From a virus (Duplodnaviria > Heunggongvirae > Uroviricota > Caudoviricetes), in IMG/VR virus record IMGVR_UViG_2897375277_000008, positions 1 to 37,796 of that record: a DNA stretch of 37,796 nt; one strand, written 5' to 3'. The notes beneath the pieces are model-generated. The model ran no database searches, was not told the origin of the DNA, and worked only from the letters and a program-made list of their open reading frames with translations. Shown here piece by piece: positions 5,489 to 37,796 of the stretch. Numbering within the stretch: the stretch's first letter is position 1; each line of letters begins with the position of its first letter. The position numbers and the translations under genes were made by a program.

Positions 5489-6537
5489 GAAATCGTCCCC
5501 AGAACTGCCAGCTCATTTTTTGCAATGGAGATATTGTCCGCCGGGGCAAGCAACTGATGGCTGTATTCCCCGTTCGCACCGGAAATCGCTTCACTGATAC
5601 GTGACACCTTCAGTTCTCCCTGCGGATAACCATCACGCAGCAGGAACGAACGCAACTCCGCGGTGATGGCGGCTCGTATTTCCGGTGTATCCGGCGTCAC
5701 ACGGATATGAAAATCCACTTTATGCGCCACCGGCCTGAATACATACAAATCAGAGCCTGCCACCGGGGCCAGTGGCTCGATATGTTGTCTTGCCGCCGTT
5801 TCCGTTGATTCTTCCGGAATGGGATTAATCAGGTCACTGCTGGCAATCATCACACCGACAGTTCCCGTTCCCATCCAGTGACGGTATGTCCATGCGCGGG
5901 TAATGCCGGGCACTTCTTTAGCCCAGACGACATAGTCCCCGTCAGCCCCGCCCTGAGGCGTCCAGTAATACCGCTCAATGACGCGGGCGCGCCACGTTTC
6001 CAGCTCTTCAGTATCAAATCCACCTGTCAGGGTATCTGCCACGCCGGAAGACGGCAGACCATTCACCGGCGTGACCAGGATTAATGACGTACCGTCGTCA
6101 GCGTTACCGACCGCGCCTGCACTTGAGCAGGCGATCGGCACGCGCAGGACACCACCGGAGCTGGTTGCATCGGCAGTTGCCGTGTACTGAACCAGGTCAT
6201 CGCGCTGAATAACACTCCCGGCGGTCACCTTCAGGCCATCGCTGACACCTTCCCAGCGCATATACCCGCTGGCAGTCGTGGCCCCCTTGCGCGGACACCG
6301 TTTCATCGCAGCATGTCGCGCCAGCCAGGACTCATCGCACAGGTCAGGCAGCATGTTCATTGCCAGATAATCGATGTACCCGTAAACCGTATGCAGCGCC
6401 GCCGCATACACCTTTGCCCGCACGTCTTCATCCATGCGCCGGAGCGTGTCGCTGACGTCCAGCCTGGCGAATAAATCGTTACGGAGCATACTGATATTTT
6501 CTGCCAGCGTCGGGCGCTGAAATTCACTGTCCGCCAT
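5479..6537 (-). CDS. Baseplate J-like protein
   Basis: 352-aa ORF in baseplate cluster; position and size fit Mu gp47 / P2 gpJ. Confidence 0.7.
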
Positions 6538-29776: not shown

Positions 29777-30237
29777 TCTTCACCCGATGCAGCGCGCTTG
29801 CTGCTTTTCCGTAAGCACCGCTCACGACGCGCCAGAAAATTGTTTCGTTCTGGCTGGGAGTGGCTTTCACGGAATGCCGCCATCCACACCGTTGCAGCAC
29901 GACGGTATAAGCCCCTGGACTCCAGTTCTTCAGCCTGGCGGGTCAGGCACAAAATCTCCCGCGGGTCGTTAGTGCCGACATAGAAATTGCGCACAGGTCT
30001 GGTTTCACGAACTGGTTGCGGTTCCGCCTCCTGCGCTCTCTCAGTCAGGCGCGGGAAATGTCTGCGTGTATCCCCTTCACAACGGTGAGCCACACGACCA
30101 CTCTGACGTAACTTGCTTGCTGACTGCAGAACGCGCTGCCGTGAGTAACCTGCAAAAGCATCCGCAATGTCTCCGGAAGTACAGCCCGGATGGGCTTCAA
30201 TGAATTTCTGAACGTCATTCAAAAGACTCATGCTCAC
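29743..30237 (-). CDS. Hypothetical basic protein (possible regulator)
   Basis: 164-aa Arg-rich ORF downstream of the replication initiator. Confidence 0.4.
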   Translation of the reverse strand: MSMSLLNDVQKFIEAHPGCTSGDIADAFAGYSRQRVLQSASKLRQSGRVAHRCEGDTRRHFPRLTERAQEAEPQPVRETRPVRNFYVGTNDPREILCLTRQAEELESRGLYRRAATVWMAAFRESHSQPERNNFLARRERCLRKSSKRAASGEEWYLSGNYVGA

Positions 30238-31175
30238 CCCCTGAATCCTGCCGGGATCTGGCTGTAGTCCACATTGTCGTAACTGGCTTTGAAGTACGGG
30301 TCTTCGCGTTTTTCTGTGTACGTGCTGACGGACGGCGATAAGCGCAGGGAAAGCTCATCCCATTTTTCCCGCAGCTTCGACGGGCTGAGCACGTTACGGC
30401 ACCAGAACGGATCGCGGCTGACGCGGCTGTACATCTCGCAGATTTGTTTGTGAGTACGACCATCCTGCACACACATCAGGCGTATTTCGTTTGCCCATGC
30501 TGTCCAGTTCGGTTCTTTGGGACGTACCACTTCGCCGTCACATTCGGCGGCCTGCTCGTACAGAGCGATGATTTTTTTCCAGAGCCACTGTGCGCAGGTC
30601 AAATCATCCTGCGTCCCCCACTGGCGCTTTTTAGGGCTGAATACAACCGCATCAGGATGGCGAGTTAAAAAATCCTGTTCAGCCGTCTGCGTGTCCGGTT
30701 GCGAAGCGTCCGGACGAGAAGGTTTTTTATCTGACGGATCATGTTTTGATTTTACTGACGGATCCCCGCCAGATTCTGACGGGTGAAAACCCGCTTTTTT
30801 GCCAGATTTCGACGCATCAAATTTTGACGGGTCAGATTTTGATGCGTCAGATTTTGACGGGTCAGAATCTGACAGTTGAGAAAATGCCGCTGCCTGAAGC
30901 TTCGCAACGTTAAGCTGATAAACATTCGACGCATTGCGGTTACCCTGGCGACGCGCCTTACGCGTTAACCAGCCTTCTGCTTCCAGCCGTGCGATAGCCG
31001 TTCTGACGGTACTCATCCCCGCGCCAATCTGACGGGCAATGGTTTCAATTGATGGCCAGCACACACCTTCGTCATTACTGAAATCAGCCAGGCGGGCCAT
31101 AATTGCCACGCTGGATAACTTCATGCCTGATGCAGCGCAACCATCCCATACATAGCCGGTTAATTTAGTGCTCAT
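30234..31175 (-). CDS. Replication initiation protein (O-like, N-terminal winged helix, iterons inside gene)
   Basis: 313-aa ORF; N-terminal HTH-like region; central repeated peptide DPSKSDASKSDPSKFDASKSG encoded by the DNA iterons. Confidence 0.7.
   Translation of the reverse strand: MSTKLTGYVWDGCAASGMKLSSVAIMARLADFSNDEGVCWPSIETIARQIGAGMSTVRTAIARLEAEGWLTRKARRQGNRNASNVYQLNVAKLQAAAFSQLSDSDPSKSDASKSDPSKFDASKSGKKAGFHPSESGGDPSVKSKHDPSDKKPSRPDASQPDTQTAEQDFLTRHPDAVVFSPKKRQWGTQDDLTCAQWLWKKIIALYEQAAECDGEVVRPKEPNWTAWANEIRLMCVQDGRTHKQICEMYSRVSRDPFWCRNVLSPSKLREKWDELSLRLSPSVSTYTEKREDPYFKASYDNVDYSQIPAGFRG
30722..30881 (-). repeat. Origin iterons (about 8 tandem ~15-bp repeats)
   Basis: Repeats of attttgacgggtcag-like units, e.g. 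30822..30836, 30837..30851, 30852..30866, with degenerate copies upstream. Confidence 0.65.
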
Positions 31176-31184
31176 GACCGACCT

Positions 31185-31523
31185 CTATTTCCCTGAATTT
31201 ACGACGAAACTGTTCGAGCGGACTGAAGCATTCATGCTCATAACCTTCGCGGAGGTAGATAACCCGTTGTGTTTCCGGCTCCCAACGAATGACTCTGACG
31301 GGCACTCCGTAGTGATCTTTGAACCAGCGGTTAACTTGTCGCAAAGGACTGTCTCCTTCTGCCGGTTGAAATCCCCCACAGCCCACTCTGCAAAGCTGTG
31401 GGTTACAATTTCCCTGTCACCTGGTACATTCACTGCATAGCAATACTCCACCTTCGCTTTTCCACCCGGAACCGGAAGCGCAATCAGTTGCGAGCGACGG
31501 TAGTGTGTTGTTAAACTGTTCAT
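31185..31523 (-). CDS. Hypothetical protein (e14 YmfM-like by size and position)
   Basis: 112-aa ORF between the CII-like gene and the replication gene; overlaps an alternative-frame 73-aa ORF. Confidence 0.4.
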
Positions 31524-32083
31524 GCGTTAGTTTCTCCACAGTCACGACACGCCACGGCGCCCGGAGCTGCACACTCGCGGGCGTCACTACTTTCTGAAAC
31601 GCAAAAGATTTTGTAGACCAGTGCTGCATGCTCCTGCAGCTTCGAAATTGAGAGGTACAGCTCATCGTTAATTGCTGTCTTCTCATGCGGTTCCACTACA
31701 CCGTCTTCAATTGCTGAACGAATCTGTTTTGAATAACTGCCGATCTGTTCAATGACCTCCAGCAGGCGTTGGTTGATATCGGCGTTGTCCACATCCTCGA
31801 CGTCAGGAAGAGACACAAAGACGCCATTTGCAGACTGCGCCACAGCATCAGCAATGAAGTGAGTGCCACCAGCACGCTGTAAAACCATTGCCCATCCCAG
31901 CGGGAAAATCTGATCGCCATCTGCACGAAGGCGGTTGAATAAAGCGTTTTCTGTTACATCGAGCCAGTCAGCCGCTTCAGCGTAACCACCCGGCAACGCC
32001 GCGATAGTTTTTCTGACAGCTTTCACGTACCACTCAGGCTGTTTTTCTATTTTCCAGTGATGCTTACCCACGATTAGCCTCAT
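31520..32083 (-). CDS. CII-like early regulatory protein (CP76 type)
   Basis: 187-aa ORF directly downstream of cro; family assignment from memory. Confidence 0.5.
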
Positions 32084-32114: not shown

Positions 32115-32315
32115 CTAATCTTTCGGATAGATATCCGGTCTTAAGTCAGATTTCGTAATTGCACCTGATGTGTATTGCTCAAGTTTTTTAGCCAGCACAA
32201 AACTGGCTTTTTTATAGCCATTGAAAACCAGCCGTAAGTAGCCAGGTGTTGAGCCAACTTTTCCGGCCAACTCGCCCTGCTGTTCTTTGGTTAAAGAGTC
32301 CCAATACGCTTTCAT
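32115..32315 (-). CDS. cro: Cro-like repressor
   Basis: Start set at the Met of MKAYWDSLTKEQQGELAGKVGSTPGYLRLVFNG... (66 aa) with GGAGG Shine-Dalgarno; track ORF 32115..32618 is over-extended through the operator region. Confidence 0.7.
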   Translation of the reverse strand: MKAYWDSLTKEQQGELAGKVGSTPGYLRLVFNGYKKASFVLAKKLEQYTSGAITKSDLRPDIYPKD

Positions 32316-32405
32316 ACAATATGTACCTCCGGTATACATATTACATGATTGAAATGAACCTTCAAGATACTTGTACCTTAACGGTACAAGGGTTTTAATT
32401 TCGTT
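32316..32405. promoter_or_regulatory. Right operator/promoter region (divergent P_R and P_RM)
   Basis: 19-bp motif ATGTACCTCCGGTATACAT (32321..32339) and perfect 8-5-8 palindrome cttgtacc-ttaac-ggtacaag (32370..32390). P_R on minus: -35 at 32360..32365, -10 at 32338..32343. P_RM on plus: TTGTAC 32371..32376, N17, TTTAAT 32394..32399, about 7 nt from the cI ATG. Confidence 0.55.
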
Positions 32406-33080
32406 ATGAAAACAATCCATGACATCCGGCGGTCTAACGCCAGAAAACTGAGAGATGGTGTTGGCGGGAATTCTTCCTTTGCCACTATGATTGATCGCGA
32501 GCCAACCCAGACCAGCAGGTTTATGGGAGATGGTGCTACTAAAAATATCGGTGACAGCATGGCACGACACATCGAAAAATGTTTCGACCTGCCTGTCGGA
32601 TGGCTCGATCAAGAACACCAGACAACGAACATCACAAAAAAACCTGATGTTTCAATCACTAATAAACAAATCACATTAGTCCCTGTCATATCATGGGTAC
32701 AGGCCGGAGCATGGAAAGAAGTTGGATATTCTGAGGTTGATTTGAGCACAGCAGAAACGTATCCCTGCCCTGTACCCTGTGGGGAAATGACTTATATCTT
32801 GCGGGTGATAGGTGATTCAATGATTGATGAGTACCGCCCGGGAGACATGATTTTTGTCGATCCTGAAGTACCTGCCTGCCACGGTGACGACGTTATTGCA
32901 TTGATGCACGATACAGGTGAAACCACCTTCAAAAGGTTGATAGAAGATGGGACACAGCATTATCTCAAAGCGTTAAACCCAAACTGGCCTGAGCCTTACA
33001 TTAAGATCAACGGTAATTGCTCTATAATTGGAACTGTGATTTTCTCAGGAAAACCAAGAAGATACAAAATCAAAGCCTAA
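32406..33080 (+). CDS. cI: CI-type repressor (HTH plus S24 LexA-like peptidase domain)
   Basis: 224-aa ORF divergent from cro; C-terminal half ...LRVIGDSMIDEYRPGDMIFVDPE...GDDVIALMHDTGETTFKRL... is S24 autopeptidase-like. Confidence 0.85.
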   Translation: MKTIHDIRRSNARKLRDGVGGNSSFATMIDREPTQTSRFMGDGATKNIGDSMARHIEKCFDLPVGWLDQEHQTTNITKKPDVSITNKQITLVPVISWVQAGAWKEVGYSEVDLSTAETYPCPVPCGEMTYILRVIGDSMIDEYRPGDMIFVDPEVPACHGDDVIALMHDTGETTFKRLIEDGTQHYLKALNPNWPEPYIKINGNCSIIGTVIFSGKPRRYKIKA

Positions 33081-33092
33081 TCAATGTTTATG

Positions 33093-33115
33093 AACCTGCT
33101 TCGGCAGGTTTTTTT
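33093..33115 (+). terminator. Intrinsic terminator after cI
   Basis: Stem aacctgc/gcaggtt, loop ttcg, then TTTTT. Confidence 0.7.
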
Positions 33116-33119
33116 ATAC

Positions 33120-33153
33120 TTGACAATGTACCCTTAAGATACATAATGTACCC
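33120..33153 (+). promoter_or_regulatory. Candidate P_L-equivalent promoter with operator motif
   Basis: TTGACA (33120..33125), N17, ATAATG; overlapped by ATGTACCCTTAAGATACAT (33126..33144), same 19-bp pattern as in O_R, plus a second ATGTACCC at 33146..33153. Confidence 0.5.
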
Positions 33154-33314
33154 AAGAGAAACAACAAACAGGCAGGACGCCCACGAAGTAGCCGCCTGGG
33201 GCATATGAAGTCCAGGATGATTCGTTAGCAACAAAAAAGCGCCCTACAGGACGCTTAGCTCTTTAACAATCTGGTCCCCATCAACAAGTAACTGATAACT
33301 TGAGGAGGTGTGAA

Positions 33315-33521
33315 ATGCACAAAACAGAACCAAAAATCGTCGCGCCCGGATACACAAATGAGGAAATTTACGAGTGGATGGCAAAGAAGCTGGCAGCTAT
33401 AAACCAGCTTCGTGAAGTGCTGTCTTATCGACAGGAAACAATAGACTCCTTAAAAAAACTGGATCAGGAAATCACGGTTTTATCACAGGATGTTACTTTA
33501 GATATTGTGCAGACAAATTAG
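33315..33521 (+). CDS. Hypothetical 68-aa protein (first gene after P_L-like promoter)
   Basis: Start at ATG 33315 with strong GAGGAGG Shine-Dalgarno (track ORF starts 33300); predicted helical, not Arg-rich. Confidence 0.5.
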   Translation: MHKTEPKIVAPGYTNEEIYEWMAKKLAAINQLREVLSYRQETIDSLKKLDQEITVLSQDVTLDIVQTN

Positions 33522-33927
33522 GATCCCATTCATTTTCGTCAAAATCATCAAAGTGATGAATTTGTGATCTCCAGTCTCGATAATCTAAAAATTTCTGGGC
33601 GGTTACGCTTATTTTATCAAGCGTGAGTTCATCCTGAATTGAAAGAAGAAGTTCATCAAATTTCATCTCATTAATCTGTTTTGGCATCCAGTGATGCTTC
33701 ATCAGAATAAGGTGAACCAGAGCTTTTTTCCCATTCAACTGATTATAGGGAGTGCCGAATTTCTTCCGGTGCTCATGTAAGACAAGGTCCAGAAGAGTAA
33801 GTAATGTTGCCCTTGATTCAACTTTGCTTATTTCGACTGATGACACTACCCCACTGATTTCAATGCCCCGATACTTTCCAACATTTTCACAGTGGGATTT
33901 GTACAGCGTATAGATATTACCGGACAT
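33493..33927 (-). CDS. Hypothetical 144-aa protein in the immunity region
   Basis: ORF convergent with and overlapping the 68-aa gene by 29 bp; AT-rich; direct repeats in its upstream region. Confidence 0.5.
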   Translation of the reverse strand: MSGNIYTLYKSHCENVGKYRGIEISGVVSSVEISKVESRATLLTLLDLVLHEHRKKFGTPYNQLNGKKALVHLILMKHHWMPKQINEMKFDELLLSIQDELTLDKISVTAQKFLDYRDWRSQIHHFDDFDENEWDPNLSAQYLK

Positions 33928-33942
33928 TTCTTTTCCTTTTGC

Positions 33943-33993
33943 GTTGTTGGGGATAACCAGATTAACCGAATCCTTGTTGTTGGGGAATAACCA
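33943..33993 (-). repeat. Direct repeats upstream of the 144-aa gene
   Basis: gttgttggggataaccag (33943..33960) and gttgttggggaataaccag (33975..33993), 32 bp apart, 16 to 66 bp upstream of the start codon. Confidence 0.55.
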
Positions 33994-34210
33994 GGTCCAC
34001 CTCGCCTGATGTGGCTAAAAGCAGGCACATAACAGCTAAGTATTTTCAACCAGAGAGAATCCTTAGCGTTGTGGTGAATGCGGCTCAGCGCACGCGGGTT
34101 AAGGTTGAGGCTGACAGTCGACCTTCTGTGGATACCCACCCGTCTGGTGTGCAACCTTCGCTAGGCACCGGGAAGCACCCGGCACCACAACTTTATGCTG
34201 TGTGTAGTCT

Positions 34211-34259
34211 TGACGGTACCAGTTTGTACCCTTGCTTCCGGCTGGTACCGTCCTTTTTA
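34211..34259 (+). terminator. Intrinsic terminator-like hairpin
   Basis: 11-bp perfect stem gacggtaccag/ctggtaccgtc with 19-nt loop, then cttttt. Confidence 0.5.
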
Positions 34260-34347
34260 CAAAACAGAGAAGAGCATCACCGGACGACGGGCTCATAACC
34301 CAATCCATCCGGGCGGCAGTCATCGCAGGTGTTCTTCTCTGTTTTGT
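34259..34347 (+). repeat. Long inverted repeat (17 of 18 bp arms, 53-bp spacer) upstream of xis
   Basis: acaaaacagagaagagca (34259..34276) pairs with tgttcttctctgttttgt (34330..34347). Confidence 0.6.
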
Positions 34348-34420
34348 GGAGAAACTAACCGACCTTGCAGGGTCGATATGCAGAGACTGAACAGTTATTG
34401 AAGTAATAAGGTGATCGCAT

Positions 34421-34666
34421 ATGCTTCAAATGTTAACTCTTGAAGAATGGGCTTCTGAAAAATACAGAAGTAATCCTCCAAGCGTTTCCACGTTGCGTCG
34501 TTATGCTAAGCAGAATTTGTTTTGTCCACCGGCAATGAAACAAGGTCGGTTATGGCGAGTGCGTGAGGACGCCGAGTTAGTTGGAGAGCTGGTAACACCA
34601 GTAATTAAGAAAAATGACTCATTACTTTTGCAACGGATTTTGAGTGATGGCAGCCAGACCGCGTAA
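34421..34666 (+). CDS. xis: Excisionase-like protein
   Basis: 81-aa ORF immediately upstream of and overlapping the integrase gene. Confidence 0.6.
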   Translation: MLQMLTLEEWASEKYRSNPPSVSTLRRYAKQNLFCPPAMKQGRLWRVREDAELVGELVTPVIKKNDSLLLQRILSDGSQTA

Positions 34667-35774
34667 GAATAATGTTTCAGTCCCTAACTTATATCCGCTT
34701 TATAGCCGAAAGGTAAATAAAGTCTATTGGCGGTATAAGCATCCAATAACAGGGAAATTCCATGCTTTGGGAACAAACGAAGCTGAAGCTATCGCTATTG
34801 CCACTGAAGCCAATACGCGCCTGGCTGAACAAAGAACCCGGCAGATTCTGGCCATCAGTGACAGGATCGCAACCAGCAAAGGGAAAGCAATCACAACGTC
34901 AACTTGGTTAGATCGCTATCAAGCGATCCAGAATGACAGGCTGCAAAGTGGTGATATAAAGCTCAACACCTACAAGCAGAAAGCCAAACCTGTCTCCTTA
35001 CTTAGAGAACGGGCAGGATTGAAGCTAATTTCAGCTGTTGATGTCCGGGATATTGCACAATTACTTGATGAGTATATTGCCGCTGGGCAACCGAGAATGG
35101 CACAAGTAGTTCGCTCCGTCCTGATTGATGTTTTCAAAGAGGCGCAGCACTACGGAGAAGTACCTCCTGGCTATAACCCTGCATTAGCTACTAAACAGCC
35201 AAGAAGAAAAATTACCCGACAACGGCTGAGCCTCGAAGAATGGAAAAAAATATTCGATATCGCAGATGCCAGCCATCGTTACATGGGAAATGCCATGCTG
35301 CTAGCCTTGGTTACTGGTCAGCGGTTAGGTGATATTTCACGTATGAAATTTAGCGATATTTGGGATGATCATCTGCATGTCATTCAGGAAAAAACCGGGA
35401 GCAAAATCGCCATCCCGCTTTCCCTGCGCCTCAATGCGATTAACTGGAGTTTGCGCGATGTAGTAGCCCGTTGCCGTGACTATGCTGTCAGCCCATACCT
35501 TGTACATTTTTTTCGTACTACTTCACAGGCTGAACGCGGCGCACAGGTTAAAGCCAATACCTTGACTATGAATTTCAGTAAAGCAAGAGATTTAGCAGGA
35601 ATTGACTGGGGTGAAGGTTCTCCCGCAACATTTCATGAACAAAGGTCTTTATCAGAACGTTTGTATAAAGAACAGGGTTTAAATACACAAAAATTACTTG
35701 GTCATAAAACACAACAACAAACCGATCGTTATCATGACGATCGAGGCAAGGGATGGAGCAAAGTAGCGTTGTGA
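34644..35774 (+). CDS. int: Tyrosine integrase, lambda Int family
   Basis: 376-aa ORF; parallels lambda Int as I recall it (…VTGQRLGDISRMKFSDI…, …TFHEQRSLSERLYKEQ…, …LLGHKTQQQTDRYHDDRG…, with the C-terminal catalytic Tyr). Confidence 0.9.
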   Translation: MMAARPRKNNVSVPNLYPLYSRKVNKVYWRYKHPITGKFHALGTNEAEAIAIATEANTRLAEQRTRQILAISDRIATSKGKAITTSTWLDRYQAIQNDRLQSGDIKLNTYKQKAKPVSLLRERAGLKLISAVDVRDIAQLLDEYIAAGQPRMAQVVRSVLIDVFKEAQHYGEVPPGYNPALATKQPRRKITRQRLSLEEWKKIFDIADASHRYMGNAMLLALVTGQRLGDISRMKFSDIWDDHLHVIQEKTGSKIAIPLSLRLNAINWSLRDVVARCRDYAVSPYLVHFFRTTSQAERGAQVKANTLTMNFSKARDLAGIDWGEGSPATFHEQRSLSERLYKEQGLNTQKLLGHKTQQQTDRYHDDRGKGWSKVAL

Positions 35775-35924: not shown

Positions 35925-37796
35925 TTAAACCACGATTCCTAAATGGCATGGTTGCTCACCTTCAAGAGAGGCTCTCATTAAGGTCAGGAATTGGGATAAA
36001 TTATTTCTAAAATCAGAACCACTATCTTCCGCCATTCCTGGAGCTAACGAACTTACTAATAAAGCAGGTGTGATAGGTCTTGTTCCGTAAATACTATATT
36101 TCTCATGATGGAAATGACGAGTCTCGCAAGATTCACTTGGATTTACAATCATCAGCCCAGAAGACAAACTTTTTCCAGTATTTTTTTCATGTATACCATG
36201 AAGGTATTTCATAGTGAGTTCGGGGAGGTAATGTGTAAACGCTTTTTTACTGGTAGTATACTTTGCATCTAGGATTAATTGCCTTTGTTCACCCGTAGGC
36301 GTTGAAATGCAAACTATCATGTCTGGTGATCGATTAGCATTAGGACCTTGCTGCCCTCTAGGCTTCAATTTACCTTTCACGGTGTCTAGAGTCCACCCTT
36401 CGGAGTTAATTAGGGAAGCCCCAAAAGAGCTTGCATGATCATGAGTCCAAATTTTCATCTCATAGATAAGCTGTACAGTAAAACCTCCCCAGTCATACTC
36501 AAAATTATTCCGTTCTATTACAGGGCCATTCACTAGCTCAAACTTCATGCCCAATAACCGTACGTTGTCAAAGTGATACTTAATTAAAAATAATAGGTAG
36601 TATTCAAAAAGTTTTGGGATACTTTGTATCGAAAATAGCTCTTCCTGTACGCTCCAATCAGGTGCGCCGAATCTATGCCAAGCAATTATTTTATGAAAAA
36701 CCTTCTGATAATGAAGGTTGTATCTAGCTTTTCTTGTGAATTGCGGAGTGCCAATGATAATATTAGTTACAGGAACCCGCTCATCAAAAGTTCGTTTCAA
36801 ACGCTGTAGATTAATAATCAATTCTTTACATCGTGAAACTTTATTTTTATTTACAACCTTTGCAAACTTACTTAGCTGTGCAAAAAATGAAATATACCCG
36901 GATATGCTCGACTGTTCACGAATTCTGGAAGAAGGATACTCTTCAAGCCGACTCAAGATCTCCGATGCAGCACGCATAAGGGATACTATAAAGCCATGGA
37001 CAACTTGATTTTCATAAATATTCAAATCCTCTTTTAGATGATTTTCTAATATTCGTTCCGATGAATAATATGTGCCATCTAGTTCCAATATTGCGCGGGT
37101 CTGATCATTAACTGGATAAAGGTTGTCAGAGTTTTCTGAAATCCAAGCTAAAGTGGTGTCATCGATAACAGAGTTTTCAGATACTACGACAACTTTAGTC
37201 ACTGGTGTAAGTTTTGCGATTGGCCTGGAATAGATATTTGGAATCTCGGTCATTAACAATAAAACATTTCGTTCGAGTTGTTCAATCAAAAAGCTAACCG
37301 ATCTTTCTCCTTCTTTGAATCCTGCATTTATACGAGTTACTCTAAAAAATGCTGCTAGAGCATCATTATCATGACACGCTAAGAAATCGAGCATTTTTTC
37401 TGCCCGTTCAGCATTCAATTTTTTGGCAAATACTTCAACCGGAGAATATTGTTCAATAATAACTCTTTCGCCAACTCCATCGATTTTCGTTACTATCGAT
37501 AGCTCTGCCATACCATAATAGTTATGAAAAAAGCATTCGTATGTTGATCGATATATAGATTTTGGTTTCCATTCGTAAATCCATAGGCCATCGTATTCTT
37601 TGCTAGAAGTTATTCCTATTTCATTTTCATGAAGACATAAAAAAACATCATCCAACGGAACAGATGCTTCCAGCCTAAACTCTAGAGCTTCGTCTTCCAG
37701 AAAATAAATCTGATTAGAGGACTGAAGACCAAAGGGAGTCAACCCTATCTCTAGACCACTTCTCCTGCCGTTTATTATCTTCGCAGTAAACCTCAT
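35925..37796 (-). CDS. McrC-like PD-(D/E)xK nuclease family protein (start codon at window edge)
   Basis: 623-aa AT-rich ORF; C-terminal ...SPDMIVCISTPTGEQRQLILDAKYT... parallels the McrC catalytic region (…DITIRSSEKILIVDAKYY…) as I recall it. Confidence 0.6.
   Translation of the reverse strand: MRFTAKIINGRRSGLEIGLTPFGLQSSNQIYFLEDEALEFRLEASVPLDDVFLCLHENEIGITSSKEYDGLWIYEWKPKSIYRSTYECFFHNYYGMAELSIVTKIDGVGERVIIEQYSPVEVFAKKLNAERAEKMLDFLACHDNDALAAFFRVTRINAGFKEGERSVSFLIEQLERNVLLLMTEIPNIYSRPIAKLTPVTKVVVVSENSVIDDTTLAWISENSDNLYPVNDQTRAILELDGTYYSSERILENHLKEDLNIYENQVVHGFIVSLMRAASEILSRLEEYPSSRIREQSSISGYISFFAQLSKFAKVVNKNKVSRCKELIINLQRLKRTFDERVPVTNIIIGTPQFTRKARYNLHYQKVFHKIIAWHRFGAPDWSVQEELFSIQSIPKLFEYYLLFLIKYHFDNVRLLGMKFELVNGPVIERNNFEYDWGGFTVQLIYEMKIWTHDHASSFGASLINSEGWTLDTVKGKLKPRGQQGPNANRSPDMIVCISTPTGEQRQLILDAKYTTSKKAFTHYLPELTMKYLHGIHEKNTGKSLSSGLMIVNPSESCETRHFHHEKYSIYGTRPITPALLVSSLAPGMAEDSGSDFRNNLSQFLTLMRASLEGEQPCHLGIVV

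Follow-up and report, generated by a model that had tools for sequence, protein, structure and literature searches.

The small RNA DicF of Escherichia coli K-12 is encoded by prophage Qin, in an operon (dicBF) that is repressed by DicA and corresponds to a phage early-left operon. DicF is made from transcripts that start at dicBp, an internal promoter was not found, and its 3′ end is generated by termination. RNase III processing yields a 190-nucleotide (nt) form in an rnc-dependent manner and RNase E a 53-nt form, and an rnc-dependent site is listed in the spacer between dicF and dicB. A second type of prophage RNA is represented by the relatives of STnc100, EcOnc27 (sRNA103) and PasD, which are Hfq-associated small RNAs of lambdoid prophages. 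To our knowledge, no function has been established for the STnc100 family, and the same applies to EcOnc27 and PasD. Long duplexes in transcripts from the early-left promoter (PL) are familiar from phage lambda: in sib, the duplex is completed only through read-through of a terminator, and in the N leader a large hairpin follows the PL-proximal control RNA and precedes the first gene. Here, we analyze positions 34000-34430 of a viral DNA of 37,796 nt (Caudoviricetes; IMG/VR record IMGVR_UViG_2897375277_000008), the whole of which is called the window in the following. In the early-left leader, this region combines an STnc100 relative and a DicF-like terminator in a module that is real, conserved, and transcribed. 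As the best explanation, we propose that the module represents non-coding RNA within the PL transcription unit of a lambdoid prophage of the e14/SfV-like kind, from which a small RNA is made by termination and processing in the manner of dicF. We estimate the probability of this reading at about 0.65.

An STnc100-like core joined to a DicF-like terminator

Folded as a whole, the + strand RNA of 34000-34430 reaches -171.5 kcal/mol (z -6.4), a value matched by none of 100 shuffles; this fold and those of the terminator and long hairpins were compared with dinucleotide-preserving shuffles. A preliminary description of the locus had called it a structured non-coding region, and this is borne out, since the + strand RNA folds far beyond shuffled sequences and failed the coding tests described below.

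At Rfam gathering scores, no family was detected on the whole window. A sensitive Rfam search of a 0.9-kb segment aligned STnc100 (RF02076) with 34038-34261 at 44.3 bits (E = 3.6e-8). The alignment covers model positions 1-206 of 206, with the closing helix, the CCGGG hairpin, and the terminator all present, and the minimum free energy fold of 34038-34262 gives the STnc100 layout; the core contains a 9-bp perfect inverted repeat (I6). The copies in related prophages score 38.4 bits (SfIV), 35.1 bits (ST64B), 34.4 bits (Qin), and 29.2 bits (K-12 e14). The locus thus resembles STnc100 in its full-length match to the model and in being prophage-borne. It differs in position: the described STnc100 copies belong to the late region, where they follow Q or stx2B, and the module to the early-left leader. 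Thirteen related cores, including one beside dicF in K-12 Qin, show near-invariant 5′ and 3′ blocks and a variable middle, and the core is part of a far more extensive group of phage RNAs sharing GUUGUGGUGAAUGCG ... CACCACAAC. Among 17 sampled loci of this group, mostly of a kind we call type 1, only tRNA genes and the IS1222 frameshift element were detected at Rfam gathering thresholds. The type 1 RNAs, found in viral contig loci L125-L210 (for example L130, L147, L151, and L208), share GUUGUGGUGAAUGCGCAGGCUGAUGCGC ... GCCGGAGAUCAGCACCGGCCACCACAAC and have two hairpin loops that are complementary to each other (GCUGAU and AUCAGC). They often occur as tandem copies, beside tRNA genes or 5′ of holin genes.

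The core is followed by the terminator hairpin (Table 1). Its 11-nt arms are 100% complementary and enclose a 19-nt loop, and the stem is followed by CC and five T residues, confirming the perfect 11-bp stem with a T-run of the preliminary description. The predicted stem length is 11-13 bp, the hairpin folds at -22.0 kcal/mol (z -3.9, reached by none of 200 shuffles), and CTTTTTAC of the terminator is conserved across lineages. A G+C-rich stem, a U-run, and compensatory changes, as expected of an intrinsic terminator, are all found; the loop is atypical. The suggestion that this hairpin and its T-run terminate a small RNA gains support from the STnc100 match, from covariation of the stem, and from a Term-seq 3′ end on the last U of the homologous U-tract in K-12 e14.

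The similarity to dicF concerns context as well as sequence. Both loci are non-coding stretches in a repressor-controlled early-left operon with a small RNA ending at an intrinsic terminator. The two hairpins have almost identical 5′ arms, the sequence being UUUGGCGGUAUCAGUUU in DicF, CUUGACGGUACCAGUUU in the window, and UUUGGCGGUACCAGUUU in most relatives. In both, a long helix (21-24 bp) comes right after the U-tract and an STnc100-like core is adjacent: in Qin, the DicF U-tract is followed after 8 nt by a 21-bp helix closing the core and then by dicB. The two loci also differ. The core precedes the DicF-like hairpin in the window but follows it in Qin, the long helix of the window pairs with the U-tract itself, and the next gene is xis (or a yfdP-like gene in relatives) instead of dicB. 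Moreover, the loop of the terminator is unlike that of DicF in sequence, so that the DicF seed region is not kept. The Rfam model of DicF gives 28.5 bits (E = 4e-4) for the copy in K-12 e14 and 76.7 bits for true DicF. We infer that the DicF-sized 3′ domain of the module, which is bounded by two 3′ ends mapped in K-12, represents a small-RNA species.

Directly after the terminator, we found the long inverted repeat of the preliminary description, with two 18-nt arms (34259-34276 and 34330-34347) that are complementary at 17 of 18 positions (94%) and 53 nt apart. The spacer has a G+C content of 64%, compared with 52% for the region. At the base of the long hairpin formed by this repeat, the terminator U-tract together with ACA pairs with UGUGGAGA (34345-34352), which is invariant in all 16 aligned copies. 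Because the base includes the U-tract, the long hairpin is able to form only in RNA that extends past the terminator. Both the long hairpin, with its 24-bp stem, and hairpin H0, with about 20 bp, have the duplex length of an RNase III substrate (about 20 bp or more, nearly perfect), and the predicted fold makes the long hairpin a putative RNase III site. The module ends at about 34380, past a small hairpin.

Covariation and mapped RNA 3′ ends

Homologues were gathered from viral contigs with two short patterns, and 16 diverged copies of the terminator, the long hairpin, and the small hairpin were aligned (alignment A1). RNAalifold recovered all three hairpins from A1. In this alignment, 94.4% of the cells are paired, compared with 45-56% in controls in which the partner was slid by 1-3 columns, and both sides have changed in 12 of 40 pairs, compared with 1-5 in the slid controls. 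None of 500 shuffles reached the observed value for four of the five measures; for further pair types, 3 of 500 did. The terminator stem has both-side changes in 4 of 9 pairs with 97% of the cells paired, followed by a nearly invariant U-run, and a typical compensatory change converts TACCAG/CTGGTA to TGCCAG/CTGGCA. For the long stem, G:C is replaced by A:U, C:G, or another pair in the ST64B, L098, and L138 lineages. Even the very diverged loci L132, L151, and L138 have a 22-27-bp stem at the same place (z -4.8 to -8.2), and in L132 and L151 its arms are wholly different in sequence. The small hairpin is also kept while its sequence varies by lineage, pair 205:216 being AU, GC, GU, or CG. The paired arms described earlier are therefore kept in related phages by compensatory changes. 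The stems contain U-G pairs, which would be C-A on the opposite strand, indicating that the + strand RNA is the conserved entity.

Hairpin H0 was followed in a separate set of 34 distinct related loci. All of these offer an upstream partner for the H0 segment, with a mean duplex energy of -24.3 kcal/mol compared with -16.5 kcal/mol for shuffled sequences, and the two partners change together across the loci. A reading of the pre-core block AGTGCTCTTTCC in relatives as a boxA/nut element was considered and rejected: the block is the 3′ strand of H0 and varies freely with its partner. For the core, MAFFT misaligned the variable middle, and pairs there were therefore left uncounted.

RNA 3′ ends of K-12 MG1655 have been mapped by Term-seq (Adams et al. 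2021, eLife, PMC7815308). In the published table, the sequence column holds 50 nt upstream, the 3′-end nucleotide, and 10 nt downstream, and three of the listed ends map onto our alignment, on the e14 strand equivalent to the window + strand (Table 1). The end at 1201195 lies in the homologous U-tract, which agrees with the discrete 3′ end near 34257 looked for on the basis of the preliminary description; in vivo 3′ ends at the U-run are in this way found by homology. According to the same table, 1201257 and 1201423 were scored in lysogeny broth at an optical density of 0.4 and lie outside Rho-termination regions. The three e14 ends are not discussed in the article.

Table 1. Features of the RNA module, homologous K-12 3′ ends, and neighboring genes. 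Positions are those of the window; K-12 ends are from the table of Adams et al. (2021).
Feature	Position	Strand	Evidence or description
Hairpin H0, ~20 bp	34026-34077	+	-24.5 kcal/mol, z -5.4
STnc100-like core	34068-34191	+	closing helix GUUGUGGUG / CACCACAAC around internal hairpins including CCGGG-AAGCA-CCCGG
DicF-sized 3′ domain, 63 nt	34196-34258	+	single-stranded leader and terminator hairpin
Terminator hairpin	stem 34212-34222 / 34242-34252, U-tract 34254-34258	+	repeat finder, folding
Long hairpin, ~24-bp stem with two small internal hairpins	34255-34352	+	-46.9 kcal/mol, z -6.3, 0/200 shuffles
Small hairpin	34360-34375	+	just 5′ of the ribosome site of the next gene; -8.5 kcal/mol
3′ end 1201195 of K-12 e14	equivalent to 34258	+	last U of CCCUUUUU after the homologous hairpin
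3′ end 1201257 of K-12 e14	equivalent to 34195	+	after CACCACAACUUUA, end of the core
3′ end 1201423 of K-12 e14	equivalent to 34028	+	5′ foot of H0; most abundant of the three
Conserved structured RNA, 62 nt	33164-33225	+	~+10 to +72 of the PL transcript; closing helix and two hairpins
PL-type early-left promoter	33120-33147	+	TTGACA-16-CATAAT; promoter scan, 11/12 match
cI terminator	33092-33111		just 5′ of PL; promoter/terminator scan
Replication gene	30234-31175	-	
CII-like gene	31520-32083	-	
cro	32115-32315	-	
cI	32406-33080	+	
xis	34421-34666	+	Pfam Exc PF07825, 6.4e-12
int	34644-35774	+	lambda integrase arm-binding domain (4.5e-37) and Phage_integrase domain

Distribution and genomic setting

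By BLAST, the region was found in SfV, SfIV, SfII, and many E. coli phages, and in Salmonella ST64B at 77% identity; the 3′ half alone (from 34210) is present in Stx2a, Stx2c, mEp460, and cdtI phages. Of 5426 complete E. coli genomes, 2780 gave a BLAST match to at least part of a 491-nt query spanning the region and 1352 a match to most of it. The K-12 e14 segment that aligns with window positions 33997-34440 is annotated as the ORF ymfH (b1142), followed by the beginning of xisE; 91% of the alignment columns are identical. K-12 CPS-53 has retained the yfdP ribosome site and lost the module. A search of species-representative genomes with the 17-mer CTGTTTTGTGGAGAAAC returned 64 matches, about the chance expectation, which are real only in Escherichia, Shigella, and Citrobacter.

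In SfIV, SfV, ST64B, and Stx2a_1447, the module always follows cI/PL and precedes a yfdP-like gene, the first of the early-left genes. Of 100 phage contigs with the long-hairpin motif, 75 continue into a yfdP-like gene and 5 into xis. A special tie to xis and int is therefore not supported; direct contact with xis is the e14-type arrangement.

Profile, promoter, and operator evidence for the individual genes identifies the window as that end of a lambdoid prophage which carries the immunity and integration genes, with the order cro - cI - PL - module - xis/int, in which PL points into the module. The near-consensus promoter 33120-33147, overlapped by ATGTACC operator repeats as read from the sequence, is probably PL and the source of the transcripts crossing the module, and xis and int are the genes that read-through transcripts would express. 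E. coli H22 is 99.6% identical over the query, and the genes there carry the names ymfL, ymfT, ymfK, xisE, and intE from the Prokaryotic Genome Annotation Pipeline (PGAP), indicating that the element is e14-like.

Within the PL transcription unit, a phrog_1744 gene (68 aa, 33315-33521, + strand) and a phrog_5286 gene (144 aa, “ECs1072 family”, 33493-33927, - strand) are convergent and overlap by 29 nt at their 3′ ends, so that PL transcription must cross the phrog_5286 gene antisense. Relatives carry other inserts at this position, orf33 in SfV and ymfI with ymfJ in e14. Between the start of the - strand open reading frame (ORF) 33493-33927 and the module lies a direct repeat, GGGGATAACCAGATTAACC (33949-33967) and GGGAATAACCAGGTCCACC (33983-34001), with 79% identity and 34-bp spacing. 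It is not conserved in SfV and K-12 e14 and may be a promoter or regulator site of this ORF. Immediately outside int, 35925-37796 (- strand) encodes a protein of 623 aa that contains DUF2357 and weakly matches a PD-(D/E)XK nuclease; in E. coli H22, a large hypothetical gene comes next after the gene of the DUF2357 protein. This locus beside the attachment site is possibly a restriction or defence locus. No tRNA gene was found in the window.

Two other RNAs of such prophages deserve mention. On the + strand, the segment 31558-31583 lies opposite the 3′ end of the CII-like gene and is identical to K-12 e14 around the Term-seq 3′ end 1203751. This 3′ end, antisense to ymfL, has 14-50 million reads and is among the most abundant in the part of the Term-seq table covered (PMC7815308). 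The segment looks like the terminator of an OOP-type antisense RNA against cII. A 2026 paper describes the small RNA svsR (C0293-like) at the cI 3′ end in the related NC-SV prophage; a homologue in the window, if any, would lie at ~33000-33111, where cI and its terminator end. Both svsR and HnrS, the latter from the late region, were considered as the identity of the module and rejected, as they are different prophage small RNAs.

Proposed mechanism and rival explanations

Like dicF, the module sits in a repressor-controlled early-left operon and ends at an intrinsic terminator, and a promoter scan found no consensus promoter inside it. By analogy to dicF, we propose that PL transcripts would mostly stop at the hairpin, at 34258, and would be trimmed by RNase III at long helices such as H0 and by RNase E at an AU-rich site (CUUUA/UG). 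The product would be a stable small RNA of ~230 nt, possibly also one of ~63 nt, carrying the terminator hairpin and the U-tail and acting in trans. Polymerases reading through the terminator would make the 3′ arm of the long hairpin, which could then pair back on the U-tract. The resulting 24-bp duplex is a likely RNase III site, and its cutting would part the small RNA from the xis-int message, which would keep the small hairpin at its 5′ end when released. Under such a scheme, the terminator would set how much PL transcription reaches xis and int.

Several observations weigh against this reading. The STnc100 match stays below the gathering score (44.3 compared with 47 bits), and the DicF model RF00039 reaches only 19.9 bits (E = 0.12, 34199-34253) compared with a cut-off of 48. 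A loop of 19 nt is long for an intrinsic terminator, and the hairpin is consequently not listed by the consensus terminator scan. The 3′ strand of H0 overlaps the 5′ strand of the closing helix of the core, so that the two pairings compete and are mutually exclusive. The expression data come from the K-12 homologue, which is 91% identical, and not from the prophage studied, and the terminator end 1201195 is listed under one of three growth conditions only. That RNase III would cut H0 or the long hairpin is argued by analogy. Finally, duplex energies of the RNA against ftsZ (positions -60 to +45) were no better than those of shuffles, and no target is predicted; DicF itself did no better on ftsZ, so this duplex test has no power.

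A possible, though clearly less probable, alternative is that the module acts mainly in cis as a leader with a regulated terminator, which would silence xis-int (or the early-left genes) until RNA polymerase becomes termination-resistant, for example through the RNA at 33164-33225, and that the small RNA is a by-product. It is favored by the position of the terminator, which in every relative lies between PL and all downstream genes, and by the gene content: gene profile searches found no N-like protein among the PL genes, and no N or nut site was recognised in the window. In addition, the PL-proximal RNA occupies the place of putL in HK022. Its sequence (CAGGCAGGACGCCCACGAAGUAGCC) is nearly invariant, K-12 e14 also has a copy, and it occurs in heteroimmune phages of Escherichia, Salmonella, Klebsiella, Pantoea, Yersinia, and Pectobacterium. 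Its structure is supported by covariation of the closing helix and a hairpin, with 94.1% of the cells paired compared with 16-47% in slid controls; in stem II, 4 of 5 pairs are compensatory. A comparison with Rfam gave no match. Like putL and putR of HK022, this RNA of ~60-70 nt starts a few nt past the PL start, is highly conserved, and is found in phages without a recognisable N protein. It is possibly a put-like antiterminator, or it has another leader function. Homology to put was rejected, as BLAST against the HK022 immunity region was negative and the helices supported by covariation differ, a closing helix enclosing two hairpins instead of the side-by-side stem-loops of put. Whereas put copies follow both PL and PR, a single copy is present in the window, and only its position after PL fits. 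Although 53 of 100 module-bearing loci with enough upstream sequence carry the PL-proximal RNA, it is absent from the other half of them, and the sequence conservation of the core exceeds the needs of a simple attenuator.

Somewhat more doubtful is a self-contained small-RNA gene, or “moron”, with its own promoter just 5′ of the core, expressed independently of PL in the lysogen, in which the terminator serves only as insulation. The 3′ ends were found in uninduced K-12 cultures, and the relatives STnc100, EcOnc27, and PasD are Hfq-bound in uninduced cultures; DicF, however, is detected without induction too, although it lacks a promoter of its own. A weak candidate, CTGATG-16-CATAAC at 34006-34033, would place the start near 34038-34040, where the Rfam model begins, and in the related cores L126, L131, and L199 a good σ70 promoter starts exactly at GUUGUGG. 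On the other hand, the promoter scan of 33930-34040 was empty, the candidate –10 region lacks the final T, and ST64B has no similar sequence at the equivalent place.

A more far-reaching version goes beyond the module itself, and we consider it improbable: the early-left leader of e14/SfV-type prophages would be an RNA-only control circuit, and the STnc100-like cores one large unrecognised family of phage RNAs. In such a circuit, 33164-33225 would represent a new class of polymerase-modifying antiterminator with put-like function and unrelated sequence. It would decide between a stop at the DicF-like hairpin, giving the trans-acting small RNA, and read-through, upon which the long hairpin would capture the U-tract and an RNase III cut would free a translatable xis-int message. 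The cores of types 1 and 2, spread over hundreds of phage contigs and mostly missed by Rfam, would then belong to one family.

A retroregulator of the lambda sib type, in which RNase III cutting of the read-through hairpin leads to 3′-to-5′ decay of the upstream message, is quite unlikely. The formation of an RNase III-type duplex only upon terminator read-through, since the long hairpin includes the U-tract, would suit it, and the long duplex in a PL transcript is shared with lambda sib/tI and the RNase III hairpin of the N leader; the sequences are unrelated, and the position relative to int is unlike that of sib. The preliminary description had raised retroregulation of int and xis; in the sib sense, this does not fit the location of the module, which is upstream of xis (34421) and not 3′ of int (35774). 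Moreover, the upstream RNA would still end in a stable terminator hairpin after the cut, which should protect it.

There is very little to be said for a small protein (YmfH in K-12, SfIV_34/35 in SfIV). ORFs are annotated at the module, and 14 of 16 homologues keep one frame uninterrupted across the long hairpin, but a conserved start codon or ribosome site is absent, variable columns are spread 14/15/15 over codon positions 1/2/3, substitutions are paired across stems, the H22 copy is frameshifted according to PGAP, and mapped RNA 3′ ends fall inside the ORF. The earlier statement that the region lacks a credible ORF thus needs rewording: mechanical ORFs of 52-102 aa do overlap it, but none has a coding signature. 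We conclude that the protein annotations over the module (ymfH, b1142, at 5570-5881 of locus L279; SfIV_34 and SfIV_35 in L001; P5708_RS14645 in L278) are probably spurious.

Equally remote is an action at the DNA level, as extra repressor operators, a cruciform, or a protein-binding site controlling int and xis: GGTACC/TGTACC words do occur three times within 30 bp (34215, 34225, and 34244), as had been noticed, but their resemblance to operator half-sites is coincidental, because the true operators at OR and OL read TGTACC-N5-GGTACA while the hairpin words are 13 nt apart, GTACC-N3-9-GGTAC matches a single site of the window, OR (32373-32387), the U-G pairs make the stems strand-specific and RNA-like, and the hairpin does not track the immunity type, being the same in the heteroimmune phage L003 with its unrelated operators and replaced by an unrelated stem at the equivalent place in ST64B.

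For the biology of these prophages, our preferred reading of a dicF-like small-RNA module has several consequences. The “hypothetical protein” ymfH of K-12 e14, which has its like among the ORFs called in SfIV and many genomes, would become a small-RNA module, one whose experimentally mapped 3′ end lies in the genetically tractable K-12. The module also links the separately described RNAs DicF, STnc100/EcOnc27, and PasD by one shared architecture in operons that phages activate upon induction. A terminator under regulation would be a control point for prophage excision, and should the small RNA act on host targets in the way of DicF, it would be an unrecognised regulator in many lysogens of E. 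coli, Shigella, Citrobacter, and Salmonella.

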